Positions 755-40,896 of a DNA stretch of 64,000 bases are shown here, piece after piece. The position numbers and the translations under genes are program-made. The stretch is from contig OY969585.1 in the NCBI GenBank assembly GCA_963701295.1, forward strand, positions 2,400,001 through 2,464,000, in the 5' to 3' direction. The notes below the pieces were generated by a model. It was not told the origin of the DNA, searched no databases, and worked only from the letters and a program-made list of their open reading frames with translations. The stretch is from Ignavibacteriota bacterium (GTDB lineage: Bacteria > Bacteroidota > Ignavibacteria > UBA10030). The first letter of the stretch is position 1, and each line of letters begins with the position of its first letter.

Positions 755-790
755 CGCTAACCTACTGGTCAAGCTAACGGAATGAGTGTG
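755..790 (+). repeat. attC-like site, left half only
   Basis: CGCTAAC-CTACT-GGTCAAGCTAACGGAATGAG matches the family left arm; no right arm follows. Confidence 0.7.
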
Positions 791-825
791 GACATCAAAA
801 GACAGGAAAAATGAAAAAGCAAATC

Positions 826-906
826 AAAGTTTTACCCATAAACTAAGAAATCCTACCCGAATTCCATCGATGAAGATTCTTCTTTAGACTTAGTAGCGGG
901 GGCAGG
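826..906 (-). repeat. tRNA-fMet 3' tail remnant plus terminator-like hairpin (copy A)
   Basis: GTAGCGGGGGCAGG (893-906) is the reverse complement of CCTGCCCCCGCTAC; flank is homologous to 19786-19887 and 40820-40896. Confidence 0.65.
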
Positions 907-1290
907 TCAAGCGATTCCAAAAAATATTTTTTTTAGAATTTATTTTTTCTCTTTTATGCGATTTTGTTACATTAGGTCTGCAATGTTCTCATTAATCTAT
1001 TCAACCCGACATACTTCGTGTGGTCAACTTGTCCGGATCTCTGACTATCGTTTTCAGTCACGAGAAGATTTGAAGCTGCATCAGAACTTTGAACCATTGA
1101 AGCTCCATTGCCCAAAGTGCTTGTTAGAAATAAACGCTACTCATTTTGAGCCGTGGGAATTCGTGCGTTTAGGAATGGAAAGAATTGCTGATGAAATGCC
1201 TCTTGAACAATAGTATGAGGTGCGTGGAAAGCTACTACAAATGATATGGTTTTATTTTTAAAAAATATGATTAAGTTACTTATGTTATCT

Positions 1291-1319
1291 TTGACACTCC
1301 TCGTTTCTTTCTCTATATT
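1291..1319 (+). promoter_or_regulatory. sigma70-type promoter upstream of GH116-like gene
   Basis: TTGACA-17 nt-TATATT. Confidence 0.6.
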
Positions 1320-1478
1320 CTTACGCGGTGTAATTTAGTAGAGTGATATCGTAGAGGTAATTTATTTAATCTCATCTCATAATGGAGTAGACCATAGAAA
1401 AGAATGAGATGCAGTAAAAGTAGACCAAAACTGCTTGCTTCAAGTATGAAATAATCCCATCCAAAAGAAGGGAAAAGG

Positions 1479-4400
1479 ATGAAATTTAAGCCGTTTTTGA
1501 TACTGCTTTTTCTCGTTGATAGTTTCCCTATTATTCATGTCCATGCAGCGGTTGATGGTACCACTGGGACACCACTGGGTGGACTTGGAACCGGTGCAGT
1601 GAAGTTCAATGCTGGCTATGGTACTTTCACTTTTAATGATCAAACGCCCACACGGTACGGAGATTATCAGTTGCTTGCCGGAGCTCAGTTTCAGCTTTAT
1701 ACCAAGAGTGCCGGGTCTATTATAACCAGCTATCCTCTCAAAGCTACACAGATGTCGGGCAGGATCGATGACAATGCTGTTTTCCCGACACACCAGGTCA
1801 ATTTCGGGATCTTAAATGGTACCGGAATCAATCTGAATGCATTCGGGCCTTTCGATCCTATTGTCTCTGATAACATGGCATTCCCGGGTGCATTCTACGA
1901 TTTCACGTTTACCAATACTGGCGATTCGGAGTCGGAAATATCTATAGCGTTTCAAATGACAACCGAACAAAATCCGATCATCATTAGCGGAAAAGGATTC
2001 TCAGACGAGACGGGCCTCCATCAAAAATGTGTCTTTGTTTACGACGAACAAGGTTCTGCAGTTGTAAGTGTCGGAAGCGACAGCGCTTTTTTTCAGACCG
2101 GGAATTGTGAGAATAGTATTAGCGGGAAAACAAATAGAGCTGCGGCTTTTTTCAAACTTCCAGTAGGTGGCGTAAAGACGGTTACCTTCATCTTTGCATG
2201 GTACAACAATTCTGATAAGACACGTTATTACTATACAAATTTTTATGGTAAAGCTACCGAAGTGGCAAACGCGGGGTTGATTCATTTGCCGGTATATAAA
2301 CAAGCCGCTTTTTCATTTGTGAACCGCATGCGAGCGTCAAACCTACCGTCATGGATCATTGATCAAACATTAAACTCGCTTGTCAATATCGTAAATAACA
2401 GCATTTACACAGCGGATGGTCGTTACTGCCACAATGAAGGAATGTATCAGATGGATGGCACCATGGATCAGATGTGGCATAGTCGGCAGATCAACGTCCA
2501 ACTTATACCGGAGATTGCCTGGAAAGAACTCGAGTATTGGGCACGGTGTCAGAAAAAAGCCGTAGCTTCAGAGGGTCAAATTCATCATGATTTCGGGAGT
2601 AATGCCACATACACGATCGCTAGTTGGGATGAATCGGAATATCAGGATTATCGCGATATTGATGCATGGGTGGATTTGAATTGCGGTTTTATTATATCTG
2701 TCTATGAAACTTACATTGCTACGGCAGACAGTATAAAACTTGCTTATCTATGGCCGTATGTGAAGAATGCGGGGCAAAGAATTTTAAATCAGGTCGTTCT
2801 CGAAGGTGATAAAACATATCCCTATACGTTTTCGACTTCCTCAAGTTCGTACGATAATGGGGGTGAGTCACAGGCGTTTAATTCGGGTTTGTCGATAGTG
2901 ACCTACAAAGTCCTTCATTCGCTTGCTGAGGAAATGGGTGAAACGGTTCTGGCTTCTACGTATACGGCAGCATGTGATACTGCTATAAAATATTTCTCCC
3001 AACGTTGGCTCGATCAACCATTTATAACAGGAAAAGCCTGTGAGTCTATTTTGGGGGGACCCTGGATAGCGAATTTTCTAAAATTGGATCAAGACTGGGC
3101 ATCATCAAAACTGAATATTCTTTTTTCCACGATTACTAATTTTTATAGTCCCCTTGGAAGCGGGCTAGGATATGCAGGTGGATCATATGAAGAATGGCAA
3201 ACGTACCTTGTTGGTCATCTCGGAGGCTATGCCCTTCAAACTGGTAGAGTCGATATCTGGCGCGCTTTACAGTATGATATGTATGAACGCAACACGCTTG
3301 ATCGCAATCGGGTCTTTAATGAGCCATTGGGCATACCTTCGAAAGTTATGTCCCCGGTTTACATTGCATCGAATTCCAGCAGTGCCGATCAGTACATCAG
3401 CATTCCGGTTTTGTGGCGAAATTATTATGACCTTATCGGATTTCATCGTAATAAGGCAACTGGAGAACTCTGGCTGGAACCGAATCTTCCGGCAGAATTA
3501 AATCATAACCTTTTGAACGCGTGTATTATTTCTCCCGAGGGATACGCCACTATAAGCACCTCTGAAAGCGGAGACTCGTGGCAGAATCAAAGAATCACTT
3601 TTACATCTGATAAGTCGATTCAGGTAAACGCGATTTATGCAAAAGATAAATACAGCGACACTATCCGGTCAGTCCGGGTAAATGGAGCAGACAAGCAGTA
3701 TATTCGGGTGGGGACCGGGTATCAACGGCAACTGAAAATTATCTGGTCTGGCAGCATCGATTCGTCGGGGATCATACTCGAGGTTGTAGGCGATCCGATC
3801 ATGCTTAAAACTCCTGCGGCACCAGATCAACTCAGAGCCACTTCAGTCTCACCGAGTCGCATTGATCTTGTTTGGCGGAATAATGCCGTAGATGCAACCG
3901 GTTATAGAATCGAATGCAAAATCGGGGGCGTATTTACTACAATTGGAACCGTTGGAGCACATGACACAACATTTTCCCATACAACACTTCTGCAAAATAC
4001 GCAATACTTCTACCACGTTGTGGCTTACAACAATGATGGAAACTCAGGTTTTTCAAATGTGGCGAGTGCGATAACAAAGAGTGCTGGAACAGGTGACGTT
4101 GTGATTGCGATTAATTCCGGCGGTCCCTTGTATCTGGGTAAGGAAGGGACCCAATATATAACGGATGTGAATGCTTCATTCTGCGCTGGTGGGACGGCAT
4201 ATTCCACGACAGCAACCGTTTCGGGAACACCAGATGGCTCGCTTTATCAAACTGAACGGTATGGGATTTTTTCTTATGCCTTGTCCATGCAAAACGGCTA
4301 TTATGAAGTAACACTCAAATTCGCGGAAATCTATCAAACAGGTGCCGGGTTGCGACTATTCAATGTCACCATTGAGGATTCTACGGTAATTTCGAATATG

Positions 4401-4857: not shown

Positions 4858-5070
4858 ACATAACCAGCAACTAAAGCTGACGGAATGAGCCCGCCAAAAA
4901 GACGGCGGGCAAGCGTGGTACGTTAAGCATGGCTTTTGGTGGGTTTCAGTTTCATTATTACGTTTTTTGTACTTCATGACTTTTGTGTAATTAATTTTGT
5001 ATTCAGTATGAACTCGTTTTCAAAAATTTGAAAATTATCAGCGCCGCAGCTTAGTGCCAATCCGTTAGAA
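4858..5070 (+). repeat. attC-like site (213 bp)
   Basis: ACATAAC-CAGCA-ACTAAAGCTGAC ... CGCAGCTTAGTGCCAATCC-GTTAGAA; internal hairpin GCCCGCC-AAAAAGAC-GGCGGGC. Confidence 0.85.
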
Positions 5071-5191
5071 CGCACGAATTATATATGGCGTAATTACTCT
5101 AGATTATATGCCGCGCAGCTTGATGATTGGTTTCGCAAAAGAAGTCTGTGGCTTGAACCAATTGAGGAGAACTATACATACTGGAGGCACA

Positions 5192-7216
5192 ATGTCACGA
5201 TTTAATTTATTATTTATGTTTCTGTTTTGTGCGTTTCAACTTAGTCAATCGCAACTGAGGTATGTGACTGCGGCAAATACGAGTACTATAACTAGCTACG
5301 GTTACGAATACCAAATGACGATTCAAAACAAGAGCAATGTTCTGATTGCTTTCAAAAGAGGTACAGGAGCAACTTCAGCAGACAGAGAAATTCGAGTTGC
5401 ATACTCTGCAGATGCCGGTCGTTCTTTTACTGAATCCAATATAACCATTCCTACTAATACTGGTACCTTTAGTCCAGTTATATCTAGCACCACAAGTTCC
5501 GTTGTCGCCATCTATCAGTATGATTCAAGTGTGACAAGAAATGTGTGTTTAGCGCGATCAACAAATGGGGGCAGTTCATTCACCTTGTCTTCTGTAGCCA
5601 ACTCAAATCTAAGTAATGCATGGTTAGAGACATTCATTTCTGATGGTGTTTCGAAATACTATGTTGGTGATAATTTTTACTTGTTCGCTTCGACTGACGA
5701 TGGCGTCTCATTCAAACAAATGAAAACCCCTTCAGATATGTCGTCCGGATCTGTATCTTATGCTCGTTGGGTAGCAACTCCTAATTATTTGTGGGTTGTG
5801 TATAATAAAGAAGCTGGAGATTCAATTTATGTTTATCGATCTAGCGACAACGGTAATACCTATCAATTCATAACCCAATACTTCGTAGATTTTCCATCCA
5901 ATTATCTTTTTTCCTGTTATGCAGTGGGTGATCAATTGTATATTTCTTGGGTTCACGAGGAAGTCGGAACATACTCGCTCAGAATGAGGACCATCACTGG
6001 AACTACAGTTGGCCCAATAAGAGATGTTCTTGTAACAACATCTAGCATCGACAAACCAATTTTGAAGAAAACTTCTGGTCGGGTTTTTATAGGAGTCTCT
6101 GATCAAATATTTCAATCAACAGACTCGGGTAATACTTGGAGTAGGGGTTCTGATGTGACCACGGAGATAAAAAATATAAAAAGCTCTCCAAACCTAAACG
6201 ACTTCATTCCATTGGATGACACGACCATATATTTGCACCTCAATAGTGATTTAACAGGATCATTGACACAGATTCTTTTTGCCAATTGGAAATGGACTGA
6301 TTTTCCAATAACTGATCTGACTGATGATACATTGATTACATTAAGTTCATCCGTCGACATTGGTTGGTGGAATCGTTACGTTGAAACGCCCATATACCGT
6401 TTGCAGATGTCAAATTCTCCGAGTTTTTCTCAGGTCATCTTTGATACTCTTGGAACATACTACTCATACATTCCTATGAAGAAAAGATTCCAAGCAAACG
6501 AAACAAGGTATTACTACCGAGTTCGTGGAGAGGATAATGGATACAATACTTCCTGGTCCCCGACGAAATCTTTCCGCTACGGTTCATCCATCACAGGTTC
6601 ACCTTCTCTCACCGCACCCATAAATGGCAGTACAGTAACCTATCCCAATATTGTCAATTTCCAATGGGGATCTGTAACCAATGCCGATAATTATGTCTTC
6701 CATATGTCGTCCACAACCACTTTTACAGATACACTCAATTATTTTGACTGGTTATCTGAAACTAAGACATCAGCTTTCCCTTGGAAGGGCGGTCTCCCGA
6801 TTTTGAATGGTACTTTCTATTGGCGTGTCAGAGGATTGGAGTATGAAACTGGAAGTACTGGCCCTTGGAGCGTCACGTGGAGCTTCAACTATACCGGGGC
6901 AACAGGGGTGTCTGAGGAACAAGTTGTAATTCCAAAAGACTATTCATTATCTCAGAATTTTCCTAATCCATTCAATCCATCCACAAGGATCACTTTTACA
7001 CTTCCGTTTCGTTCAAGAGTTACAGTCTACATATACAACATACTGGGTCAAGTAGTATCACGACTTTTGGATACCGATCTGGAAAAGGGATTCAAGTCTA
7101 TTGATTGGGAAGCTACGGTTTCCAGCGGAACGTACATCCTTCGCCTTGAGGCTATTTCTCTTCAAAATCCGAATGTCCATTTCGAGAGCACAAGGAAAAT
7201 GATTTTAATGCGATAA
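5192..7216 (+). CDS. BNR/Asp-box beta-propeller (sialidase-like fold) with FN3-like domains and T9SS CTD
   Basis: Repeated S-x-D-x-G-x-[ST]-[FWY] boxes; GGAGG RBS before ATG 5192; CTD. Confidence 0.75.
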   Translation: MSRFNLLFMFLFCAFQLSQSQLRYVTAANTSTITSYGYEYQMTIQNKSNVLIAFKRGTGATSADREIRVAYSADAGRSFTESNITIPTNTGTFSPVISSTTSSVVAIYQYDSSVTRNVCLARSTNGGSSFTLSSVANSNLSNAWLETFISDGVSKYYVGDNFYLFASTDDGVSFKQMKTPSDMSSGSVSYARWVATPNYLWVVYNKEAGDSIYVYRSSDNGNTYQFITQYFVDFPSNYLFSCYAVGDQLYISWVHEEVGTYSLRMRTITGTTVGPIRDVLVTTSSIDKPILKKTSGRVFIGVSDQIFQSTDSGNTWSRGSDVTTEIKNIKSSPNLNDFIPLDDTTIYLHLNSDLTGSLTQILFANWKWTDFPITDLTDDTLITLSSSVDIGWWNRYVETPIYRLQMSNSPSFSQVIFDTLGTYYSYIPMKKRFQANETRYYYRVRGEDNGYNTSWSPTKSFRYGSSITGSPSLTAPINGSTVTYPNIVNFQWGSVTNADNYVFHMSSTTTFTDTLNYFDWLSETKTSAFPWKGGLPILNGTFYWRVRGLEYETGSTGPWSVTWSFNYTGATGVSEEQVVIPKDYSLSQNFPNPFNPSTRITFTLPFRSRVTVYIYNILGQVVSRLLDTDLEKGFKSIDWEATVSSGTYILRLEAISLQNPNVHFESTRKMILMR

Positions 7217-7268
7217 TGCACAAAAATGTCAATCGGATCAGAAGTGACAATTGTTCAAGCTGCGCGGC

Positions 7269-7406
7269 ATATAATAACCAAAAGCACTATGCTCACATCA
7301 TTTGATATGGATTATAGAGTTCGCTCAATGCAGTTTGCCGCGTGTTGGTCGATTCGCTCTTTTGATAGCGGCAAACTGTGTTGCGTGCTTTTGGTAAACG
7401 TTATAT
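7269..7406 (+). repeat. Divergent attC-like hairpin of a different family
   Basis: ATATAAT-AA-CCAAAAGCAC ... GTGCTTTTGG-TAAAC-GTTATAT with inner inverted repeat CAGTTTGCCGC/GCGGCAAACTG. Confidence 0.5.
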
Positions 7407-7438
7407 AAAATATGACAATATAAAAGGAGGAAGAAGAA

Positions 7439-8506
7439 ATGGCTAAAATATTTACTATAAATATTGATAAATTGTCAACCATGAATGAAAGGCGACTGGA
7501 AAAAGAAGATGTGCTTCACAACCATCTCGAAAAATTCCCTGAGATTATTGCTGAGGCGTTAGATACGGATAATCCACGCAAGTTCATAGTACTCAATAGA
7601 GAAGCAGGGGTAGTTGGCTTCTCTATGGATTTACTTCTTCTCGACCAGAATTATATATTAACAGTGGTTGAAGCCAAGCGAGCAGAAAGTACAGACTTGA
7701 GAAGGAAAATCATTGGGCAAGGTATTGAATATGCAGCGAACCTTGTGATTGTATGGAAGACAAAAAAAATACTCGAACAAGCGAAGGATTATTGGAACGG
7801 CAAGGGAAAGAAACTTCTCGATGAGATAAATACCACCTTTGAACCAGAAGAACCAATAGAGGACGATAATATACTCCTTCAAAAGGTGCAAGAAGGACTC
7901 GATAACTTGCAGATAATATTTGCAGCAGATGGTCCATTTCCCAATGAACTGAAAACTGCCATAGAGTTCTTAAATAAGAATTTTAAAACTATCAAAGTAT
8001 ATGGTCTTGAAGTAAGATACTTCGGAGAAGAAAAGGGACAGCATATTATAACTCCATTAATCGTCGGCCGAACAACTGAAGCAGAAATTGGTAAGTCAAC
8101 AACAAAACAGTGGACAGAAGAGATGTTCCTTTCTGAATTAAAGAAGATATGCGGGGATGACACTGATAAAATCAGAGTTGCAGAAGATTTGCTTAACTTT
8201 TCTAAAGATGAAGGTTCCAAGAATCCGTTTGAGAAAGGTCCGTCAGTATCAGGCAATTTTAATTTCTACGTTAAAGAAGGGACTAAAGACTATGCGCTAT
8301 TTTATGTAAATGCTTTAGGTAATATTTATTTTTATGGATTACAAAATAAAATTCTCTTCACAAAGGAATTAATAAATATTGGTTTTGAGATTTTACCAGA
8401 GAAAAAGGAGAGTCTATTGAGTCTTGGTATTCTGGAGGATCCTGAAAAACTGAAGAATTTCAAGAACATAATAAGGACATACGTTAAAAGTAAATCTGAA
8501 AATTAG
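7439..8506 (+). CDS. PD-(D/E)XK nuclease-like protein (NucS-C/restriction endonuclease-like)
   Basis: E...MDLLLLD...VVEAKR...IIGQGIEY motif; strong AGGAGG RBS. Confidence 0.65.
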   Translation: MAKIFTINIDKLSTMNERRLEKEDVLHNHLEKFPEIIAEALDTDNPRKFIVLNREAGVVGFSMDLLLLDQNYILTVVEAKRAESTDLRRKIIGQGIEYAANLVIVWKTKKILEQAKDYWNGKGKKLLDEINTTFEPEEPIEDDNILLQKVQEGLDNLQIIFAADGPFPNELKTAIEFLNKNFKTIKVYGLEVRYFGEEKGQHIITPLIVGRTTEAEIGKSTTKQWTEEMFLSELKKICGDDTDKIRVAEDLLNFSKDEGSKNPFEKGPSVSGNFNFYVKEGTKDYALFYVNALGNIYFYGLQNKILFTKELINIGFEILPEKKESLLSLGILEDPEKLKNFKNIIRTYVKSKSEN

Positions 8507-8794
8507 CATGCAGTTAAAATGAGGCATGCATCAGAGAATAAAATATTATATGGTTATTTTGCTTTTAATTGGATCCAACTAATTCTTTTGCACATGTATT
8601 GAATATAAATATTCTACAGCGTGCGTTCTAACCATTTTAAAAAGGAAAGAGTCAAGTAAATAGTAATCTCCCGATGCGTCCCGCAGCAGCGGGATGCGGA
8701 GTTCTTTGAGAGTGATGACGACCGAACACGGCCGGCAGACAGCGATGAGAGAAGCCGCATTATCTATCGAGCAGAACGCCACGACCAGGCAATG

Positions 8795-8965
8795 ACGTCC
8801 AAACCATTTTTCGGATTAACCTCCAATTCATCAAAATACCGATGGTGGAAGCATGTCTCGTCCAAGCGAGAGGTTCCAGATATTTTCACGGCGCAACGCC
8901 TGACTTCCCAATCCAGCGGACGATGCTCTTACGGCATCAGTGAGGAAAGCGGGCTTGTCAGGCGC
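8795..8965 (-). ncRNA. Putative bridge/seekRNA of IS copy 1
   Basis: Stems CGCCTGAC/GTCAGGCG and GATGC/GCATC flank guide-like segments; CCATTTT (8804-8810) matches this copy's own end. Confidence 0.65.
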
Positions 8966-9942
8966 GGCCATTGCTGAGATTTCTGTCGGTTGATCGGCTG
9001 CCCTTTGAGACCATTATATGATGTTTTGTTCTTTAAGACATAGTAAACAATCTTTGCAAGCTCCTTCGCAAGAACAGCATAGGCGGTTGGCTCGTTAGAT
9101 CGACGAGCTAATTTCTGAAAGAGACGTTTGTATTCAGGATAATACTGAACAGCATGGACAGCGGCATCAGAGAAGGCGATTTTGAGATACTTATTGCCGT
9201 CTTTGCTGGAACGGTGGTGCACGGAACGATTGGGGTTATCAGCCGCAGGGACAAGTCGGCAGTACGAGACAAATCTCTTATCAGAGTCGAAGCGTTCGAT
9301 ACCGTCGATCTCAAGATACACCGTGAAGGCTGAGAGCTTGCCGATCCCTGGGATGTGCAGGAGACGTTGAATATCGTCATTGGGGATCAGGATCGGATGG
9401 AGAGATTTTTCCAGAGCGAGGATCTGAGAGGTGAACATATCGCGAGTATGTTCCAGCACAGCAGTCTGGAAGCGATAGGGATCATGGACAGAGCCGTTAA
9501 ATTTGGCGTGAATGCTGTAGAGACGCAGCAGACAGGCAGAGCGTTGCTGAACGAGCCGTAAGCGAATGCGCATGGTATCTCGTAAGCCGCGAAGATCGCG
9601 GCTGATTTTATGAGCTTGGGGAATGAGTCCCTGCCGTAAGAGGATAGCGAGAGTTTGCGAATCAACTTTATCGGTCTTAACTTTAGCATAGCTGATGGCT
9701 TTGAGATATTTTGCGTGAGCAAGGACGAGATCGATGCCGTGGTCTTCGAGTAAATCGTTGAGCCAGTACCACCCGGTGGTAGACTCGACGACAGCCTGAT
9801 GGGAACCAGGCAAGGAATGGAAGTAATCGAGAACCACCTCGTTGCTATTCTCGACGCGTTGTTGTTTGATGACAGCACCGGTGTCATCGACAGTGGTGAT
9901 ATAACTATTATCAGAGTGCAAATCGATACCTGAGTAATACAT
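8929..9942 (-). CDS. IS110-family recombinase/transposase, possibly inactive
   Basis: GIDLH, VVEST, KTDKVD (DEDD); IPGIG; LVPAADNPN has Pro where copy 2 has the expected catalytic Ser. Confidence 0.92.
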   Translation of the reverse strand: MYYSGIDLHSDNSYITTVDDTGAVIKQQRVENSNEVVLDYFHSLPGSHQAVVESTTGWYWLNDLLEDHGIDLVLAHAKYLKAISYAKVKTDKVDSQTLAILLRQGLIPQAHKISRDLRGLRDTMRIRLRLVQQRSACLLRLYSIHAKFNGSVHDPYRFQTAVLEHTRDMFTSQILALEKSLHPILIPNDDIQRLLHIPGIGKLSAFTVYLEIDGIERFDSDKRFVSYCRLVPAADNPNRSVHHRSSKDGNKYLKIAFSDAAVHAVQYYPEYKRLFQKLARRSNEPTAYAVLAKELAKIVYYVLKNKTSYNGLKGQPINRQKSQQWPRLTSPLSSLMP

Positions 9943-10283
9943 GGGAATCTCCTATTGTTGATGATGAATGTTTAATTCTTCAAGCTAAACATACAAAATC
10001 GGGAGGTTCCTTTTTGGTAATATCTAACAACTCAAGCTGACGAAATGAGCGCCCGCCCAAAGATAAAGCTTGGCGGGTAAATGGGTACGTTAAGCATGGC
10101 TAATAGAGGTTTAGATGTTTAATAATAAACTTATCAGAATGAACTATAGAAGAGGAAACACGCTGCGCGTGTTACAGTTATGGGGCTCCGCCTGTTATCA
10201 GTAACTTGCGGCTTCTCGTTGACGCAGCTTAGTTGCCAATCGTTAGGGCACAATTACTCATTCATTAGTTAGCTGGAAGATTT

Positions 10284-12890: not shown

Positions 12891-13054
12891 GATAATTATG
12901 TCCTAACCAGTTTAAAAAGGAAAGAGTCAAGTAAATAATATACTCCCGATGCGTTCCGCGCAATCGGAATGCAGAGTTCTTTAACATTAAGGACGACCGA
13001 ATCCGTGCCGATGCCGCGTTCTCTATCGAATAGACAGGCGATTACCAGAGCAAT

Positions 13055-15355: not shown

Positions 15356-15389
15356 AGAGAACAATATCCGTAGAAAGCACTGGCGCGCC

Positions 15390-28653: not shown

Positions 28654-28836
28654 AAACGATGGAACTCATTTCATGATAAAAATTTTTAAACTTCCATTAA
28701 GCCTAGTTTATATTTTTAAGTGGACTTTTTGATCTAACAAGGAGAGAATCTTTTTTAGTAACAAGTTTATGGAGTATATGGCAAATAGTGTATGCATTGG
28801 TTAAGGATGCAATATAGAACTAAATAATATTCTGCC

Positions 28837-28990
28837 GCCCAACTAAACACTCAAGCTGACCATATGAACTAGATATGTTAAGCATGGCGAGCATAGGTCT
28901 TATGCAATCTGAAAAATTCTACATGAACCTGTTTCGTTTTGTGTATATCAAAAGTTTTCAGTGGCGCAGCTTAGGCGCCATTCGTTAGGA
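28837..28990 (+). repeat. attC-like site (154 bp)
   Basis: GCCCAAC-TAAAC-ACTCAAGCTGAC...GTTAAGCATGG...CATGAACCTGTTTCG...GCAGCTTAGGCGCCATTC-GTTAGGA. Confidence 0.88.
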
Positions 28991-29037
28991 ACGCATTGCC
29001 ACCATATAGACTTGAATACATTTTCATGGAGGTCACA

Positions 29038-30714
29038 ATGAAAAAACGACTTATCCTTTTCTGTTTATTCGTTCTTCTGCTTCCAGACTTTCTTTATACT
29101 CAAGCGAGGAACGGGATGGTTGTTTCGGCTGAGTCGAGCGCTTCTCAAGTTGGGATCGAAATATTAAAGAATGGTGGAAATGCAGTCGATGCTGCAGTTG
29201 CTGTCGGTTTTGCGCTTGCCGTTACCTATCCACAAGCAGGAAATATTGGCGGCGGTGGATTTATGGTTATCCGCTTGGCAGACGGGCGGATAACAACGAT
29301 TGATTACCGTGAAAAAGCGCCATTAAAAGCATGGAAGGATATGTTTCTTGATGATAAAGGGAACTATCTCCCCGAAAAAAGTCAAGAAGGATACTTGTCG
29401 TGCGGTGTTCCTGGCTCAGTCGCAGGATTGCTTCTGGCACTTGAACGATATGGAACGTTGAACAGAGATAAAATACTGCAACCTGCAATCGAATTAGCAG
29501 AAAAAGGAATTAAGGTGAGCGGAACATTCGCAGATGATATCAAATCGTCTCTCAGTCGCTTTACACGTTATAAATCGACTTGTCGGATTTTTCTAAAAAG
29601 CGGTAAACCGTATCGGTCGGGAGATACACTCTTTCAGCGTGACCTCGCAGCGACATTGAAACGCATTGTGTGCAATGGAAGAGATGGCTTCTACAAAGGA
29701 ACAACAGCCGATCTGATTGTTGCGGAAATGCAACGAGGTAATGGATTGATTTCGTATGATGATCTTGCTTCGTACCAAGCAATTGAAAGACCACCGGTTA
29801 TCGGCAAGTATCATGGTTATGAAATTATTTCTATGGGACCACCAAGCTCAGGTGGAATATTACTTATCCACCTGCTCAACTTATTAGAACCATACGATCT
29901 TAAGACATCAGGATTTGCATCAACGCGAACTATTGCTTTGATGGCAGAAGCGATGAAACTTGCATATGCTGATCGAGCGGAATTCTTTGGGGATATCGAT
30001 TTCTATCCGGTTCCTGTCGCAAAGCTGATTTCAAAATCATATGCTGATGAACGAAGAAAACTCATCGATTCAAGTTTAGCGAAACCAAGCAGCGCTATCT
30101 CACATGGCTCCTTTCAGCAACATGAACTTAGCGAGACGACGCATTACTCGGTGGTTGATCAATGGGGAAATGCGGTAAGTGTAACGACAACAATCAATGA
30201 TTGGTTTGGTAACAGTATCGTTGTCGATAGTGCAGGCTTTTTCCTCAACAATGAAATGGATGATTTTGCCGCAAAACCTGGTGTGCCGAATATGTTTGGT
30301 GTGACTGGAAGTGTAGCAAATGCAATCCAGCCTCAAAAGCGAATTCTTAGCAGTATGACACCGTCGATTGTTGTGAAAGATGAAAAACCATATCTCATCA
30401 TCGGTTCACCTGGAGGTCCGACTATTGTCACAACAGTTCTGCAGGTAATTCTCAATGTTATTGATCACCATATGAATATTCAGCAAGCAATTGACGCACT
30501 ACGGATTCATCACCAATGGTTGCCGGATACCCTTTGGTATGAAAAGTCGGGACTCACAGATGAGGTTGTACTGAATTTGAAACATCTTGGATTCAGCGTA
30601 ATTGAACGACACGGTTATCAAGGCAATGTTGAAGCTATTCTGATTGATCCACAAACACGATTGTATTATGGTATTGCTGATCGACGTGGATATGGAGCAG
30701 CGGTCGGATATTAA
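29038..30714 (+). CDS. ggt: Gamma-glutamyltransferase
   Basis: GGNAVDAAVA, IDYRE, ETTHYSV, LNNEMDDF, SSMTP, GSPGG. Confidence 0.96.
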   Translation: MKKRLILFCLFVLLLPDFLYTQARNGMVVSAESSASQVGIEILKNGGNAVDAAVAVGFALAVTYPQAGNIGGGGFMVIRLADGRITTIDYREKAPLKAWKDMFLDDKGNYLPEKSQEGYLSCGVPGSVAGLLLALERYGTLNRDKILQPAIELAEKGIKVSGTFADDIKSSLSRFTRYKSTCRIFLKSGKPYRSGDTLFQRDLAATLKRIVCNGRDGFYKGTTADLIVAEMQRGNGLISYDDLASYQAIERPPVIGKYHGYEIISMGPPSSGGILLIHLLNLLEPYDLKTSGFASTRTIALMAEAMKLAYADRAEFFGDIDFYPVPVAKLISKSYADERRKLIDSSLAKPSSAISHGSFQQHELSETTHYSVVDQWGNAVSVTTTINDWFGNSIVVDSAGFFLNNEMDDFAAKPGVPNMFGVTGSVANAIQPQKRILSSMTPSIVVKDEKPYLIIGSPGGPTIVTTVLQVILNVIDHHMNIQQAIDALRIHHQWLPDTLWYEKSGLTDEVVLNLKHLGFSVIERHGYQGNVEAILIDPQTRLYYGIADRRGYGAAVGY

Positions 30715-30851
30715 GACTTAATTAGTTTTTAGAAACTCTACAAGTTATTGATAGTTTAACGTTCTTTTCGTAGTAATTCTGTGATTTCTGTTTTTAGTGG
30801 ATCAAAGGGAAGTTGCTCAATAAGGTCGGTACTAGCTGTATTATATTTATG

Positions 30852-30895
30852 ATCCTAAATAGGAGTTCTTGAGACTTTGTCGCCATTCGTTAGGA
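30852..30895 (+). repeat. Possible attC remnant
   Basis: CGCCATTCGTTAGGA is identical to the end of the 28837-28990 site. Confidence 0.45.
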
Positions 30896-33684: not shown

Positions 33685-34334
33685 AAAGCTATTGCCTATC
33701 TGTAACGGTGGAGAAGAGCACGATGTGTTGCGCTTTTCTTTACAATATTGTCATCCTGCCATTGGCGAAATGGCAAATATGGAACCCTTTTTTAAGCCTT
33801 ACAGGAGATCCATCGAGCTGCTTCTGCTTCGAGATAGGACAGGAATCAATGTCGAAAGGGAGGGTCTTACGAATTTATAATAGAAAGTGGTTTCGCCAAA
33901 ATTTTTCTGGATTTTTTCATTCGACTTTGGCAAATCGATTTCGAAAATTCTTATTTATTTTTGAAAAAGGCCTTAATGCGAATTTAAAAAAGGTTGATAC
34001 CAGAGACCATCTCCTCGATGGGCGCTAACCTCCCATAGCCTCGGCATCTTGTAACGCGTCGTAGCTGATATTTTTTAGGCAAAATATATTTTACCTTATC
34101 AGGTAGCCAGTGCTTAATATTAGAAAAATACCAACTTATCATGAGCACATCAATCAGGGCAGGTCAAGACCATAGACTCTTATTAAAAGAAATTATGATG
34201 AAGTCCCTTGCATCATTCAATAATTCTGCTAACGTATTATATAGAAGAGAGACTGGGTTCTCGTGACAAACACAATTTCAGAGATATTGTTCTTCAGAGA
34301 TACTATTCTTAATTGATGTGGAATGGGAGTACTG

Positions 34335-37300
34335 ATGAAGAGATATTATTTGTTACTACTTGCTGTGATAGGAATTACGTTTGTTGCTTCGGCGAAAGAT
34401 CCTTCCCAAAAGCTCTCGCCCTTTTTTCAGCGTCTTCTGGATGCGAGATCAACGGCTTCACTCGCGAATAAAACGGGATATGCAAAACTTTCAGCAGAAC
34501 CAACAGTCACGACAACGGGCGATACACTCTACCGCGTGATCATCCACACCACGGATCCTTCATCGCTTCGAAACGAAGGAATTATTGTTAACACCGTCCG
34601 AAAGAATTTTGTAACGGCGCAGGCGACAAAGGGTCAGATTCGTCGCATTGCCGGGTTGAGTTCAATAAGTTTCATTCGTGAGGCTCGTAAACGAAAACCT
34701 ATAAACGATGTTGCCGCGGGTCTCAGCGGAGCGCGCTCGTTGCAAAACGGTTCAATTAATAATACGCAATATACCGGCGCCGGTGTTCTCATCAGCGATA
34801 TCGACACGGGTATCGATTGGAAACACCTCGACTTTCGCAATCCCACCGATACAACAAAAAGCCGCATCGTCTATTTGTGGGATCAAACACTGACGGCCGG
34901 ATCGGGCGATGCTACGGCAAAAGGATATGGAGTGCTCTATACCAACGCTCAAATAAATGCTGCAATTGCTTCCGGTTCTTCATCTGTGCGTTCTAGGGAT
35001 ATGCTTGGCCATGGAACGCACGTCGCCGGCATTATGGCCGGGAATGGCGCATCCATGCCTTCGAGGAAATATGCCGGTTTTGCTCCAAATGCAGATTTGC
35101 TGATCATTGAAACAAACTTTTCCGATGCAAGTATTATCGATGCGATGGATTGGGCCGATAGCATTGCCACGGCTCTCAACGAGCCGCTCGTCGTTAATCT
35201 CTCGCTTGGTTCGCAAATGAGTGCCCATGACGGTACAGAGGATGATGAGCAGGTTGTTGATGAGATTTCTATAAAAACGGGTCGCGCCTTTGCTATTTCT
35301 GCAGGCAACGACGGCGCGGACGGCATTCATATTTCCGGTTCTATTAATTCCCTTAGTACTGCGACGGTTACATTTTCTGTTCCCACATATACACCGAACC
35401 CCGGAACTCAAAATGACTATGTTCTTATTGATGGATGGATTAATAGCGATGATAACGTCACAGGATCGATCACTTCTCCCGATCCTGCAATAACCGTTAC
35501 AGCAACTCCGGAAACAGAATACTCTAATGATGGTGACGCAGGTTATATGGAAGTGGACAATTTTACTAGCCCGCTAAATAGTAAACGCGAAATTGTGACT
35601 TATATTTTTGATCATAACAGTTCAAAGAATCCACGTGCTGGCACGTGGACACTCAAATTATTAAATACTTCTTCTCACGCCGTAACATATAATGCCTGGT
35701 TCGATTCGGATTTTGGCACATCCGGATCGCTTGTGGCCGTGACGAACGCCGATAACAACTACACTGTCGCTTCACCGGGTGATGCAACCAGCGCTATTAC
35801 CGCAGCTGCATATGCAACTCGTTGGTATTGGAAGTCCACCGACGGCAGTGTCTACCTTGCATCAGGCATCAATACAAGCGATAGTATCGCTTACTTCAGC
35901 AGTATCGGTCCGCGAGCAGACGGTTATCAAAAACCGGATATTGCTGCGCCAGGCTTCTATGTAATCTCTGCTTTTCCGAACAGTTTTCTTTCCACAGCGA
36001 GTTATGCTTCTTCAGTAATGCCAGATAACAAACACTGGATAATGGCAGGAACCAGCATGGCGGCGCCGGGTGTAGCAGGAAGCATCGCGTTGCTCTTTCA
36101 AGCAAACGCGACCCTGACAGCATCAGCCGTGAAGAGCTTGCTTACATCTAACGCAATGATGGATGCTTTCACTGGATCGTTACTGCCAAATACTCGATGG
36201 GGCTATGGCAAATTGGATGTTGCTAAAGCGATGACAGCTCTCGTGGCGCCGAGCACAACAAACACAAGAAATATAATTTCCTATGACGATTGGAACCGAA
36301 CCACCAATGATGTCACGGATTTCAACAATTATGTGCAAGCCAGTGGAAGCGTGTCCGAAAAGTATGCTGTCCGCATAACTCCTACAACAGATTCCAAGTT
36401 AACAGGGATTCTATTCCACACCTACTCAACGGTGACATTGAATAATAATCTCATAGCTGAAGTCTGGTCGAACAATCAATTGGCCAATTTGCCGAGTGTT
36501 CTCATCGCCGGACCATTCACGATCAGTCCGAACGTAGTGGCGACTGCGGGATGGAACTATGTCGATATCCCCAAAGAGTCCACGTTTACGCTTGCAGCCA
36601 ATACAAGTTATCATCTCGTGTTTTATCCCGCGTCGGGGACAGCGGATATAATTTCGTTTACAAGGGACGCCAATGCGATTAGCGGGCGCAGTTCACATTA
36701 TTCGAGCGGTGCGTGGTCAGCATACATCAACGGCGATATACGCATTCGCGGTGTTGTGGTCGGAACAAACGGAGCATTGCCAGTAGAACTGAATTCATTC
36801 GCAGCGTCATCGTCTGGCAACGCGGTCGACCTGACGTGGACCACTGCAACCGAAACGAACAATTACGGTTTCAACATCGAGCGCGAGAAGATCGGAACCG
36901 ACGCTTCATGGAAAACGATCGGTTTCATTCCCGGCAATGGAACAAGTGCGATCACGCATCGCTACAGTTATATGGATAATAGCATCTCAATGGACGGTTC
37001 GTATCTTTACCGGCTCGGTCAGGTCGACAACAGCGGGGTATTGAAATACTCATCGGAACTCGAAGTTGCAATCAATCTCCCGAAACAATTTGCGGTCTGG
37101 CAAAACTATCCGAACCCGTTTAATTCATCGACAACCATTTCTTTTAATTTGCCGTCGCGGTCATTCATATCACTGAAAGTGTTCGATCTCATTGGAAGAG
37201 AGGTGGCAACAATTGTGTCAGAAGAACTGCAAGAGGGAAATTACTCTCGGCAATGGAATGCTTCTGATTTGCCTAGTGGCACTTATTTCTATCGTTTACA

Positions 37301-37346
37301 AGCTGGTTCGTTTACTGAAACAAAGAAACTTGTTTTACTGAAATGA
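34335..37346 (+). CDS. S8 subtilisin-family serine peptidase with T9SS CTD
   Basis: DIDTGID, GHGTHVAG, GTSMAAP catalytic triad; LPVEL module; CTD. Confidence 0.92.
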   Translation: MKRYYLLLLAVIGITFVASAKDPSQKLSPFFQRLLDARSTASLANKTGYAKLSAEPTVTTTGDTLYRVIIHTTDPSSLRNEGIIVNTVRKNFVTAQATKGQIRRIAGLSSISFIREARKRKPINDVAAGLSGARSLQNGSINNTQYTGAGVLISDIDTGIDWKHLDFRNPTDTTKSRIVYLWDQTLTAGSGDATAKGYGVLYTNAQINAAIASGSSSVRSRDMLGHGTHVAGIMAGNGASMPSRKYAGFAPNADLLIIETNFSDASIIDAMDWADSIATALNEPLVVNLSLGSQMSAHDGTEDDEQVVDEISIKTGRAFAISAGNDGADGIHISGSINSLSTATVTFSVPTYTPNPGTQNDYVLIDGWINSDDNVTGSITSPDPAITVTATPETEYSNDGDAGYMEVDNFTSPLNSKREIVTYIFDHNSSKNPRAGTWTLKLLNTSSHAVTYNAWFDSDFGTSGSLVAVTNADNNYTVASPGDATSAITAAAYATRWYWKSTDGSVYLASGINTSDSIAYFSSIGPRADGYQKPDIAAPGFYVISAFPNSFLSTASYASSVMPDNKHWIMAGTSMAAPGVAGSIALLFQANATLTASAVKSLLTSNAMMDAFTGSLLPNTRWGYGKLDVAKAMTALVAPSTTNTRNIISYDDWNRTTNDVTDFNNYVQASGSVSEKYAVRITPTTDSKLTGILFHTYSTVTLNNNLIAEVWSNNQLANLPSVLIAGPFTISPNVVATAGWNYVDIPKESTFTLAANTSYHLVFYPASGTADIISFTRDANAISGRSSHYSSGAWSAYINGDIRIRGVVVGTNGALPVELNSFAASSSGNAVDLTWTTATETNNYGFNIEREKIGTDASWKTIGFIPGNGTSAITHRYSYMDNSISMDGSYLYRLGQVDNSGVLKYSSELEVAINLPKQFAVWQNYPNPFNSSTTISFNLPSRSFISLKVFDLIGREVATIVSEELQEGNYSRQWNASDLPSGTYFYRLQAGSFTETKKLVLLK

Positions 37347-37424: not shown

Positions 37425-37625
37425 ATGAGTAAAGAAAAAAAAGCGAAGATCCTTTGGTTTATTGCTGGATTAATATTCTTAAGTGTCTGCTTGCATGATA
37501 TTTATTATTCTGGTTCATCGAATAAATCTATACTTATTATAGTCTTTGAAGGCATAGCAGGAATTGCTTCAATTATTAATGCAGTTACATTTAGAAGAAA
37601 GTATGTAGGTAAGAAACCTGCATAA
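37425..37625 (+). CDS. Small two-TM protein; stop codon in attC R'' box
   Basis: GGAG RBS; two hydrophobic helices; TAA within GCATAAC. Confidence 0.6.
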   Translation: MSKEKKAKILWFIAGLIFLSVCLHDIYYSGSSNKSILIIVFEGIAGIASIINAVTFRRKYVGKKPA

Positions 37626-37785
37626 CCGAATAAGAGTGTCCACAATATGTGGAACTTGTATACGTACATTCCAAATTTGGGAATGTAGTAAATGGACTTG
37701 GTTCGTGCGGTGGGATATTGAGATTTATCGTTGCGGCAGATTACTTCTTCGCCGTCTTTTGGGCGGAGCCGCCCATCCGTTAGGC
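37620..37785 (+). repeat. Divergent attC-like site
   Basis: GCATAAC ... ATGGACTTGGTTCG ... GCCGCCCATCC-GTTAGGC; hairpin TTCGCCGTCTTTTGGGCGGA inserted in the right arm. Confidence 0.7.
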
Positions 37786-37800
37786 GGCGGGAAATAAATC

Positions 37801-38421
37801 ATGAACATAAAAACTATCTCGATCTTTATTTTTGGCATAGCGTGTGGAGCTTTATTTAGTATTCTGATAATGAGGCTCACATTGTCACACTCTTACCAAC
37901 AAGAGAAGCCAATACAAAATATTCCTACGGCTAAGCCAACGATTGCCGATATGTGTGCTTTGCTGGATGCTCCACGAATGCCTCTTATGGTCGTCACTGG
38001 TTCAATCATCGACTTCAAAAATACTCAGTGGCAACTTCGGGGACTTAATAATACTATTATTTCTTTTGCTGATCTTCGTGGCAAAGTACTCTTCATAAAT
38101 TTTTGGGGAACATGGTGTGGACCCTGTGTTGCAGAGATGCCTTCTATCCAAGTATTGTATGATTCCCTAAAACACGATCCAGTTGAATTCCTTGCTATCT
38201 CAGATGAATCTATTTCAAAGATTCAAGAGTTTGCCAAACGCGAACAGCTTACTTTGCCACTTTTCCAGAGCATATCAAAGCCGCTTCCAGAATTTGATTT
38301 CAAAGTGTGGCCGGTAACAGCTATCGTAAACAAGTCTGGCACAATTGTATATGTTGAATCTGGAAGTGTGAAATGGGACGATCCATCTGTTATAAAATTT
38401 ATACGTAATCTTTGTAAGTAA
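37801..38421 (+). CDS. TlpA-family thiol-disulfide oxidoreductase (cassette)
   Basis: LRGKVLFINFWGTWCGPCVAEMP. Confidence 0.9.
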   Translation: MNIKTISIFIFGIACGALFSILIMRLTLSHSYQQEKPIQNIPTAKPTIADMCALLDAPRMPLMVVTGSIIDFKNTQWQLRGLNNTIISFADLRGKVLFINFWGTWCGPCVAEMPSIQVLYDSLKHDPVEFLAISDESISKIQEFAKREQLTLPLFQSISKPLPEFDFKVWPVTAIVNKSGTIVYVESGSVKWDDPSVIKFIRNLCK

Positions 38422-38427
38422 TCCGCT

Positions 38428-38448
38428 GTTTAACCAGGCGCTCAGGCT
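38428..38448 (+). repeat. attC-like left-end remnant
   Basis: GTTTAAC-CAGGC-GCTCAGGCT. Confidence 0.65.
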
Positions 38449-38594
38449 TTAGCAGAGGCAAGCGTAATCAATTGACTTTTTAAACATCACATCTGACAAA
38501 TGCTATATTTTGATGCAGATTTCTTTTTATCCGGTTTTTTATTTTTACTGGTCTTCATGTATCTATAAACGAAGAGGGAAAAAGAGGATATACT

Positions 38595-39890
38595 ATGGCC
38601 CCCACAAAGAAAAAATCTATTGCAATGCGACCGTCTATCCGGAAGCTGGAATCGCTCATAGATGCTGCGAAGCAACTCAACACTACATTTGATCTGGATA
38701 AACTTCTTTCTATCATTCTCGGCCATGCCACGAAGAATCTCAATGCAGCGCGAGGAACGATCTATCTCATCGACGAACGGACACAGGAGATTTGGTCAAA
38801 AGTGGTGAAAGGCACTGGACTAGTCGAAATCAGATTGCCGATTGGGACTGGCATTTCTGGGACAGTCGCTAAAACCGGAAGAACAATCAACGTGAAAGAT
38901 GCAAGCAAAGATAAGCGATTCTATTCGGCTATTGATAATAAATCTGGTTTTCATACAAAAACGATGCTTTGCAGACCAATGAGAAATAGAAACGGCGTCA
39001 TTATAGGGGTCTTTCAGATTATAAACAAAAAACGTGGTGTTTTTAATCGGAACGATGAATTTTTCCTGGATGCGTTTTCAGAACACGCTTCTCTCGCCAT
39101 CAAAAATGCTAGACTCTTTCAAGCGGATCTTGAACATGTGCGGGTGGATAAAGAAATTCAAATCGCTGCTGAAATGCAGCAACAGCTTTTCCCGAAAGTA
39201 ATAATTCAAATCCCATCGTATGAACTCTCCGTCACGGTCCAACCTTGTGCATCAATCGGCGGTGATTCGTACGACATCATTCCACTCAAGGATGGGAAAT
39301 TTGCTATCACTATCGCTGACGTCTCTGGAAAAGGAATCCCAGCTGCTCTTTTAGTGTCGACTTTGCATGCCTTATTGCGAGTGTACCTTCAGTATCCAAT
39401 GGAATTGGTTGAGCTTGTTAGGAGATTGAATGCTCTCGTTTACAATAATAGTCCAGCAGAACGCTTTATCACTTTTTTTATCATGATTTTTGATCCGATT
39501 AATCATAAGTTCACCTATGTGAATGCCGGTCATAACCCGCCTTTCCTTTTCCGAAAAAGCAGAAACGATATTAACGAACTTATGGCGAGCGGTTTACCTC
39601 TGGGAATCGTGGAAGAACAGCAGTTTGAAACCCATCAGATAAACCTTCAACATGGCGATACGTTGGTTTTGTATACTGATGGAGTGACAGAGGCGGCAAA
39701 TAAAAAGCTTCAACAATATGGTGAACAGAAATTACGTGAATGTGTTCTTAGGAACTTCGAGACAACAGCCGAGACGATCAAAGGATGTATAGTGAGAGAC
39801 GTTCAAGGGTTCATTGGAAATTATCCGCTGTCCGATGATTTCACCTTAATGGGGCTGAAGAGAGACCCCGAGGCATCGTTCAAATTATGA
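38595..39890 (+). CDS. GAF + PP2C/SpoIIE serine phosphatase (RsbU-like)
   Basis: GAF (QIINKK..F...DE); GGDSYD, ADVSGKG, NAGH, YTDGV, DDFT. Confidence 0.92.
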   Translation: MAPTKKKSIAMRPSIRKLESLIDAAKQLNTTFDLDKLLSIILGHATKNLNAARGTIYLIDERTQEIWSKVVKGTGLVEIRLPIGTGISGTVAKTGRTINVKDASKDKRFYSAIDNKSGFHTKTMLCRPMRNRNGVIIGVFQIINKKRGVFNRNDEFFLDAFSEHASLAIKNARLFQADLEHVRVDKEIQIAAEMQQQLFPKVIIQIPSYELSVTVQPCASIGGDSYDIIPLKDGKFAITIADVSGKGIPAALLVSTLHALLRVYLQYPMELVELVRRLNALVYNNSPAERFITFFIMIFDPINHKFTYVNAGHNPPFLFRKSRNDINELMASGLPLGIVEEQQFETHQINLQHGDTLVLYTDGVTEAANKKLQQYGEQKLRECVLRNFETTAETIKGCIVRDVQGFIGNYPLSDDFTLMGLKRDPEASFKL

Positions 39891-39978
39891 CGCCGTTTAT
39901 ATTCTTTGAATTTGTTGTCACCGGTACTAGCCGGTGCAGATCTATCTATCGAGAGGACAGTCACGACGAAGCAACGAT

Positions 39979-40100
39979 ATCCAAAACTGCGCTCAAGCTG
40001 ACGGAGTGAGCGTGCGTACGTTAAGTATGACTGGTATAGGTTTCGTTTACTACAAAATTGGAAGTTATCAATATGGCAGCTTAGTACCCATTCGTTAGGC
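39979..40100 (+). repeat. attC-like site (122 bp)
   Basis: ATCCAAA-ACTGC-GCTCAAGCTGACGGAGTGAG...GCAGCTTAGTACCCATTC-GTTAGGC. Confidence 0.85.
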
Positions 40101-40149
40101 GGCTCACAAAGAATTCATAAAAGAATTGAACGTAGAAAAGGAAGATTTT

Positions 40150-40725
40150 ATGCGATGGAAGTATGGACGTATAGCCAGAGGAATGACCTTCGGGACACTA
40201 TTCGGCTTGCTCTGGTTACTTATTCCGTTTCAAGATAATAATCTTAACGGAACACCGTTAAGCTTGTCGGTGGTTTTTATGATCTTGCTTATTATAGGTT
40301 GTATTTATCTGTTTCACATTGCTGCGAGTGCACCGAAAGAATCCGAAGAAAATATGATTCTTTACAAATCCGAGCGGAGTAGAACAGGTAAGATGTTTGG
40401 TGTAGTGTTCTCAGCTGAGTTTGTGCTAATTGGGTTGGTCGCAAGTATATTGATTCCCAAAGGACTTTATGATTTATTCGTACCCATCATCGCTATTATT
40501 GTTGGTGTACACTTTTTTCCTCTTGCTAAATTATTCAAAGCGTATATTTATAATATTACCGGTGCTGTGGCTGTCATAGCTGGATTAGCTTCTTTTCTTG
40601 TGCGTACAGAACCTGCCCGGCAGGATTTTGTCGGATTTAGCATGGGTATCATCCTGTGGTTGACGGCGGCATACTCTTTTATACACGTGAGAAAAGAAAT
40701 GACGAATGTTAAGTTGAATAATTAA
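40150..40725 (+). CDS. Multi-pass membrane protein (cassette)
   Basis: About six hydrophobic segments; IVGVHFFPLA. Confidence 0.7.
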   Translation: MRWKYGRIARGMTFGTLFGLLWLLIPFQDNNLNGTPLSLSVVFMILLIIGCIYLFHIAASAPKESEENMILYKSERSRTGKMFGVVFSAEFVLIGLVASILIPKGLYDLFVPIIAIIVGVHFFPLAKLFKAYIYNITGAVAVIAGLASFLVRTEPARQDFVGFSMGIILWLTAAYSFIHVRKEMTNVKLNN

Positions 40726-40749
40726 CACTTAGAGAAAATTAAATCCGTT

Positions 40750-40896
40750 GCTTAACCAACCGCTCAAGCTGACCGAATGAGCATGGGTGTCAAAAGACAA
40801 AAAATAGAATACCACATTAAAGTTTTGCACATAAACTAGGAATCCTCACCAATTATATTCGATGAGGATTCTTCTTTAGACTTTGTAGCGGGGGAG
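40750..40896 (+). repeat. attC left half fused to terminator plus tRNA-fMet tail (copy C)
   Basis: GCTTAAC-CAACC-GCTCAAGCTGACCGAATGAG, then CAAAAGACA...AATCCTCA/TGAGGATT...GTAGCGGGGG; homologous to 755-906. Confidence 0.75.

Follow-up and report, generated by a model that had tools for sequence, protein, structure and literature searches.

A 64,000-nucleotide stretch of an Ignavibacteriota bacterium chromosome, hereafter the window (G000:C1:2400001-2464000, from a genome, G000, consisting of one contig of 3.64 Mb, C1, and 99% complete), carries over about 40 kb a series of genes for proteins with type IX secretion system (T9SS) tags, interspersed with copies of a repeat that has the geometry of attC, the recombination site of integron cassettes. 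The repeat, the genes between its copies and the C-terminal sorting domain (CTD) of the T9SS genes were analyzed computationally in the window, in the whole genome and in related genomes, and the span is interpreted here as probably a decayed array of a chromosomal integron.

The window contains seven full copies of the repeat, 120-230 nt long, and about nine halves or remnants, and every scored copy lies on the plus strand (Table 1). This is in agreement with a preliminary description of the stretch, which had counted about 14 copies or half-copies on that strand and had given their attC geometry correctly, including the two stop codons (16927 and 37623) within an R'' box. Its gene labels GH116-like, GH5-CBM6 and T9SS CTD were borne out by Pfam, and the Asp-box label only weakly.

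Table 1. Features of the 40-kb span and attI copies of the genome (positions are those of the window unless preceded by C1)
Feature	Position	Strand	Remarks
Full attC copies	4858-5070, 10018-10248, 14282-14412, 15390-15584, 16365-16523, 28837-28990, 39980-40100	+
attC halves/remnants	755, 16923, 23714, 24645, 25258, 30883, 37617/37773, 38425, 40750	+ (scored ones)
SMP-30/gluconolactonase-like (SGL) gene, 3' part, with T9SS CTD	56..742	+	PF08450 and PF18962; starts upstream of the window
Broken attC left half fused to the ~110-nt tRNA-Met-flank repeat	755..905	+	83% identical over 291 nt to C1:1811151-1811437
GH116-like/fn3/malectin/T9SS CTD gene, 1122 aa	1479..4847	+	Pfam
Full attC, 213 nt	4858..5070	+
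Complete two-gene cassette, 3,569 bp	5064..8632	+	no head/tail mismatch in 12; complementary over 14 bp
Propeller-like (Asp-box) T9SS gene, in the 3,569-bp cassette	5108-7216	+	BNR_2 E 1.9e-4, below cut-off
355-aa orphan gene, second in the 3,569-bp cassette	7439-8506	+
IS110-family element	8636..10023 (ends approximate)	-	NF033542 above cut-off; just after the R'' box of an attC
Rest of the split attC	10018..10248	+
Single-gene cassette, 2,666 bp: GH5-CBM6-CBM9-Ig-T9SS CTD (ORF 10284-12890)	10242..12907	+	head/tail 2 mismatches in 14; Pfam
Second IS110-family element, in the attC of the GH5 cassette	12911..14287 (ends approximate)	-
Three small cassettes: 296-aa orphan, SIMPL/DUF541, 125-aa protein	14282..16945	+	head/tail 3, 4 and 1 mismatches in 12; Pfam
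attC of the three small cassettes	full at 14282, 15390, 16365; left half 16923	+
GH3-PA14 gene, no CTD, no cassette ends	17038..19776	+	followed by tRNA-Met-flank repeat, 19785-19890
878-aa T9SS gene	20766..23402	+	no cassette end at this locus
Right-half attC, 920-bp orphan-gene cassette, left-half attC	23714..24670	+	1 mismatch in 12
SnoaL-like, tricorn protease and gamma-glutamyltranspeptidase genes	24832..30894	+	attC remnants 25258, 30883; full attC 28837-28990
S8 peptidase with cassette-type T9SS CTD	34323..37346	+	CTD 80% identical to that of a tailed gene; no recognizable attC
Decayed cassettes (66-aa ORF, thioredoxin-like, DUF7010) and GAF-SpoIIE gene	37425..40900	+
Full attC, and terminal left half fused to tRNA-Met-flank repeat	39980-40100, within 37425..40900	+
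Intact attI copies	C1:224104, 1796905, 2464753, 2834172, 3172114, 3446594, 3566510
Broken attI, no GTT core	C1:2387952		12 kb upstream of window base 1

Six T9SS genes lie at or in the 40-kb span (their N-terminal leaders were judged by eye), and two of these are within complete cassettes, whose head (5' end) matches the reverse complement of the tail (3' end). In the 3,569-bp cassette, a 21-bp perfect inverted repeat that is unique in the genome (5103-5123 and 7255-7275) flanks the propeller-like gene, and the outer frame of the cassette is common to cassettes at C1:241728 and 3168729. The GH5 gene had its best Protein Data Bank match to 2y8k (E 1.8e-21), with the NEP and TE motifs aligned. 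This structure is that of CtXyl5A, and the cassette product is likely, as judged from its Pfam domains and this match, an arabinoxylanase-type enzyme. For the GH5 cassette no close relative turned up: the 15 congeners gave CTD matches only, and homologs were at seven distant loci in wider genome contigs and 18 partial metagenome loci. The best homolog, P0002 (42% identity over the searched region, same domains), is on a contig other than those of the metagenome loci, and the size of that contig, 2,733 bp, is compatible with a cassette.

Other T9SS genes of the span have a cassette end on one side only. The GH116-like gene has a cassette-type CTD, a tail and a full attC downstream, but no cassette head, and a promoter-like site is located upstream of it at 1291-1319. 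The SGL gene has a cassette-type CTD and an attC tail, and a matching head was not found. Of the large T9SS genes placed in the array by the preliminary description, the GH5 and Asp-box genes lie in complete cassettes, and large T9SS cassettes are also found in congeners; the GH116-like gene has the 3' end only.

Profiles of the left and right ends of the repeat were scanned against the whole genome, with the reversed genome as the control. They matched 146 left and 147 right half-sites, versus one left and none in the control, and 122 full sites with a median length of 159 nt were identified in nine clusters around the chromosome. The repeat contains the inverted boxes R''/R' and L''/L' with an extrahelical base. 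Complementarity between the four-base flanks of the two L boxes was seen in 72 of 116 sites, in three covarying variants; shuffling gave a mean of 29 and a maximum of 46. Of the cassette heads, 67 of 116 match their own tail within two mismatches in 14 (shuffled mean 4.6, maximum 12). Because of its copy number, its covarying L boxes and its cassette-specific complementary ends, the repeat is a genuine attC family.

Where the 12-mer is perfect (57 cassettes), the end match extends over 12-16 bp in 52 distinct sequences and is at chance level at position 17. This complementarity, cassette-specific and sharply limited, reaches well beyond the 7-bp core and is a clue to how cassette ends get made or repaired. 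No literature on extended end complementarity or on CTD-linked cassette ends was found, as judged from listings.

Folding analysis was less distinctive. Minimum-energy folds of the bottom strand paired the ends (12 or more terminal pairs) in 86 of 122 sites genome-wide and in two of seven in the window; z-scores against shuffles were mostly non-significant, and three window sites (z +0.55 to +0.98) folded no better than shuffles. Searches of the window with Rfam and ARAGORN returned no matches. A dispersed non-integron repeat that merely resembles attC, such as a repetitive extragenic palindrome or a miniature inverted-repeat transposable element, would accord with the nine scattered clusters and with the failure of most window copies to fold better than shuffles; nevertheless it is extremely improbable, given the complementary ends and covarying L boxes described above, an integrase gene with an attI and a divergent array, and insertion sequence (IS) elements of the IS110 family at one fixed attC position.

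An intact integrase gene, intI, is located at C1:3566706-3567665, 1.1 Mb from the window; next to it are an attI-like site and an array in divergent orientation. Its product scored 453 bits against TIGR02249 (cut-off 265), and the score and translation indicate the catalytic residues and the integron-specific insertion, whose roles in this protein are presumed. IntI scored above the cut-off in 12 of 15 congeners and in 20 of 41 searched genomes, G000 counted. These searches of genome and lineage uphold the integron assignment of the preliminary description, which had placed intI either upstream of base 1 or nowhere near, making the array a CALIN (an attC cluster without an integron integrase). 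An intI immediately upstream of base 1 is ruled out, as none is there. The CALIN alternative stands: the window's array has more than two attC sites on the same strand and no neighboring intI. Several gaps between its attC sites exceed the 4-kb default of IntegronFinder, which would therefore likely split the array. Elsewhere, at C1:581759-581886, a piece of an intI 3' end (78% identical) was seen with no adjoining array.

Seven intact attI copies were found, each heading one array, and six of them have no adjoining intI. Several retain 80-300 nt of the intI-proximal region. The first cassette behind attI matched head to tail within one mismatch in five of the seven cases, with three and four mismatches in the other two. 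Among 86 family genomes the attI motif was found in nine, including G009, in which it is on four separate contigs with one intI. The window's array spans C1:2373-2441 kb, and its sole attI-like copy is the broken one; neither an intact attI nor an intI adjoins this array, the nearest upstream attI-like site being C1:2387952. The next array, which is attI-headed, begins 750 bp beyond the window end, and the region in between (41369-64000 in the window) contains genes for a TonB-dependent receptor, a T9SS protein and, by eye, galactose-utilization-like functions. A 144-aa orphan ORF region at 33250-33684 of the window recurs with 81% identity immediately upstream of an array headed by attI (C1:3447133-3447655), and has copies in congeners as well.

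The G000 system not only resembles a sedentary integron in its working but is one, with arrays that lack an integrase. As in the accounts of such integrons and CALINs (PMC4889954; 10.1101/2022.02.28.482270; PMC5371416), it has IntI, attI, homogeneous attC sites, mostly small single-ORF cassettes and integrase-less clusters, and its bottom strand is the leading-strand template in eight of nine arrays, an orientation common to most sedentary integrons (PMC5371416). Complete integrons in Chlorobi and Ignavibacteriae have been recorded (Neron 2022, 10.1101/2022.02.28.482270). It differs from these systems in its long attC sites, in the attI copies separated from intI, in the size of its largest cassettes and in an about tenfold enrichment of T9SS-tag genes at attC.

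The window's array is the most decayed of the genome's arrays. Heads matched tails within one mismatch in seven of 21 cases here; the next array has 20 such matches among 26 heads, and another has 18 among 22. The continuous 40-kb cassette array of the preliminary description was not confirmed: matched-end cassettes in the window number six and cover 9,354 bp, or 23% of the span. Furthermore, two window attC sites, both belonging to the large T9SS cassettes, are interrupted by IS110-family elements, which the preliminary description had passed over and of which the second has more than 99% identical copies in other arrays. Genome-wide, 17 left junctions of IS110 type are located directly after the attC R'' box. 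The same insertion of an IS110-family transposase at one attC position characterizes the IS1111-attC group (PMC11187229), to which the elements are assigned here by target only.

A repeat of about 110 nt derived from a tRNA-Met 3' flank is present in six copies (window 786-905, 19785-19890 and 40781-40900; C1:1811329, 2819553 and 3133235). Most of these directly follow a broken attC located at an array's far end, and some include part of the tRNA. It was not seen in congeners in one search. At C1:1811151-1811437, an orphan half-CTD is followed by a tail, a broken attC and the tRNA-Met flank, and the first gene of the window matches this segment at its 3' end with 83% identity.

The GH3 gene, the 878-aa gene, the tricorn protease, gamma-glutamyltranspeptidase and CFA-synthase-like genes and the S8 peptidase gene are not demonstrated as cassettes, and the stretch from the SnoaL-like to the gamma-glutamyltranspeptidase gene is likely made of old or headless cassettes. 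Orthologs of these genes, 75-93% identical, have different neighbors in relatives and are often close to attC remnants, so that the fixed gene order named in the preliminary description as a ground for refutation was not observed. Similarly, the SIMPL ortholog in G004 is a cassette adjoining a T9SS cassette, and the ortholog of the 920-bp-cassette gene in G012 has other neighbors. No orthologs of the Asp-box and S41 genes were returned from five genomes, and these empty returns carry no weight.

In the preliminary description, exported degradative enzymes were proposed to form a shuffleable library across the whole 40 kb. In favor of this, large T9SS cassettes do exist, IntI is intact, neighbors differ among relatives, and enzymes are present in complete cassettes (GH5 in the window, a C25 peptidase in G009 and an alpha/beta hydrolase in G005). 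However, an array that is the most decayed of the genome and has two attC sites split by IS elements illustrates active shuffling of a library poorly: little of the span is in matched cassettes, intact attI is lacking, the window sites fold poorly, and complete T9SS cassettes are mostly propellers without recognized activity. An active library across the whole span is thus very unlikely.

Genome-wide, 112 cassettes with a median length of 695 bp were identified. Twelve of them exceed 2 kb, reaching 3.7 kb, and nine of these 12 contain a CTD gene. In comparison, cassettes are generally small (10.1101/2024.07.02.601686), and the largest known are about 2 kb (Cury 2016, PMC4889954). Among 95 CTD genes detected by motif, 23 end 10-20 nt upstream of an attC; of ORFs of at least 250 aa, 23 of 88 with a CTD and 47 of 1,833 others end at an attC tail.

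The 23 attC-ended CTD genes form 13 unrelated payload groups: propellers (ten genes), GLUG proteins (two) and eleven singletons. By the analyst's reading, 11 have a clear head match, four a doubtful one and eight none. Their CTDs are 61.5% identical to each other, compared with 45.1% for the remaining CTDs (0 of 2000 permutations), and 16 of the 23 have AATTG in the tail, compared with two of 100 other cassettes. Complete T9SS cassettes mostly encode propeller, GLUG or FG-GAP proteins, not recognizable degradative enzymes, and several enzyme genes, including GH116, have the 3' end only. In complete cassettes with unrelated payloads, AATT is present at the head as well as the tail; this is compatible with replacement of the payload inside a single ancestral frame, or with a head copied from the tail. 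Two 651-aa CTD genes with identical CTDs were observed at C1:2286175 and 2497611, one of them just after the array at 2465-2496 kb.

The AATTG tail pattern was present in 10 of 15 congener genomes. Of 44 matches, 30 were fetched, 26 were outside G000 and 24 had enough upstream DNA; 16 of these 24 AATTG-tailed attC sites follow a CTD. Twenty fetched congener regions, biased in that they were chosen by the tail pattern, contain 25 tailed CTD genes, of which 14 were flagged complete, at least two of these doubtfully. The payloads of congener cassettes include, besides the C25 peptidase and the alpha/beta hydrolase, a propeller in a 3,068-bp cassette.

The T9SS genes encode type A cargo, with a leader and a C-terminal sorting domain above the cut-off of PF18962/TIGR04183. 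SprA (C1:3470871-3477363) and PorV (C1:2968882-2969928) were also above the cut-off, with many weaker PorV-like matches, and export via SprA and PorV is predicted from these two proteins and the tag. SprA, PorV and the CTD proteins fit the Fibrobacteres-Chlorobi-Bacteroidetes (FCB) group. Cassettes encoding signal peptides are common (PMC8618304). No literature linking T9SS cargo to integron cassettes was found, and subscription papers or supplements may list such cassettes.

Comparison of orthologs revealed exchange of the sorting tag. In 21 ortholog pairs with bodies at least 72% identical, seven have a CTD identity of 59% or less, and CTD exchange is therefore common, with or without cassettes. 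Two pairs, 97% and 90% identical, diverge abruptly at the NYPNPFNP motif of the tag, and in each a clear cassette end is present on one partner only. In the first pair, the DUF362-CTD gene located 12 kb upstream of the window, in the same array, shares 97% identity with a chromosomal locus of G011; identity is 92-100% per 100-nt window from inside the upstream malic-enzyme gene to the codons for NYPNPFNPST, and then about 50%. The CTD is 56% identical to that of G011, and a cassette-type CTD with a full attC is present in the array copy only. The array segment carries an orphan 3' stub of the malic-enzyme gene, and the malic enzyme of G000 itself is elsewhere and about 80% identical, which indicates that the DUF362 segment was derived from a G011-like chromosome.

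The second pair consists of the 878-aa gene of the window and a G011 gene, with an identity of about 90% over the body and 59% over the CTD. Here a tail of cassette type and an IS-like junction are seen, by eye, at the end of the G011 copy, and yet another CTD is found in a third ortholog. The SGL gene was compared with 20 CTD-bearing homologs: body identity was 57-72% and CTD identity 40-55%, whereas its CTD is 70-72% identical to cassette CTDs. The CTD tree places the SGL CTD among cassette CTDs with a support of only 89 in the Shimodaira-Hasegawa-like approximate likelihood-ratio test. By eye, no tail was found at 22 SGL homolog loci in relatives; the scripted pattern also missed its own two positives.

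Several results weigh against tag exchange as a source of cassette ends, and one against T9SS export. The CTD of the GH5 cassette is outside the main cassette CTD type. The G011 copy of the DUF362 gene has ACAATTG right behind the stop codon, possibly a decayed cassette end, and the direction of the 3' exchange is thereby blurred. IntI was considered as the maker of the 5' junction of the DUF362 segment and rejected, because the junction, next to the broken attI, has no GTT core. The G011 tail in the second pair was called by eye and was missed by the scripted pattern. Approximately unbiased (AU) tests left two other placements of the SGL CTD unrejected: beside the CTD of the nearest ortholog, at p 0.098, and together with every SGL CTD, at p 0.127. 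A GH16 gene has a head remnant in G000 and a worn head and tail in G004, so that decay accounts for some headless genes, and the tail of the G002 copy of GH116 is also worn. Neither excised circles nor skipped cassettes were seen in one DNA sequencing run, which yielded scattered short contigs and was too shallow to bear on this. GldM and GldN were not found in the genome, although no positive-control genome matched either (PorK and PorL were not searched); possibly this T9SS has a divergent or missing motor.

Alternatively, every tailed T9SS gene might be an old cassette that entered by the ordinary route, headlessness being the result of decay and CTD swaps the result of general gene-family recombination with no role in array entry. 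The heavy decay of the window's array and the worn ends of GH16 and the G002 GH116 would be expected in that case, and five of the seven divergent-CTD pairs are tailless on both sides. In addition, KLIKK proteases of Tannerella forsythia have unrelated catalytic domains with a near-identical, apparently recently acquired CTD (PMC4404884), as seen here; the accessible account of KLIKK mentions no integron link, whereas the exchanged 3' block in G000 can carry an integron recombination site. On the other hand, the malic-enzyme 3' stub of the DUF362 segment, 97% identical to a chromosomal gene of G011, is not expected in a cassette, the SGL homolog loci have no visible tail, and one CTD type or tail motif is common to 13 unrelated payloads. 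This alternative is rather unlikely. Insertion at attG (10.1101/2022.09.11.507474), which accounts for cassettes and small CALINs far from intI, differs in that the large arrays here begin at attI copies and the DUF362 segment has a 5' junction without an IntI core.

We conclude that the window probably contains a decayed, outlying array of a chromosomal integron with one remote integrase gene, in which T9SS cassettes of up to 3.6 kb are true cassettes and other T9SS genes likely became attC-ended via recombination of the tag. IntI would have loaded the window's array in trans while its attI was intact; mobilization of CALINs in trans is possible (10.1101/2025.06.18.660453, PMC9668308). Ordinary homology-driven recombination in the roughly 40-nt block coding for NYPNPFNPST could allow an ordinary T9SS gene to take over the tag, tail and attC of a cassette, and tail-only genes could still be excised along with upstream DNA between two attC sites. 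The origin of a matching 5' end lies outside this proposed step, and some headless genes are simply decayed cassettes.

A broader possibility, more doubtful than not, is that the sorting-tag DNA serves as a universal adaptor: a single crossover would give any one of the approximately 95 tagged genes, or of genes arriving from relatives, a tag, a tail and an attC, after which the tail would serve as the template for the matching 12-16-bp head. In that case intermediates of de novo cassette formation would have been captured in this genus, in a multi-dock integron supplied with secreted proteins as long as 1,000 aa.

The route of cassette creation has been stated as unknown (PMC4889954, PMC5371416). 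Cassettes are thought to be kept small by the process that creates them, whereas in the genus of G000 there are cassettes of 2-3.7 kb that carry genes for tagged secreted proteins. It is suggested that the default thresholds for attC length and spacing in integron searches undercount such arrays. If tag exchange does occur as proposed, the swap would offer a partial hint at the origin of new cassettes, and ortholog pairs with and without a cassette end, joined at a defined motif, would make the gain of an attC end, half of cassette creation, open to direct test.

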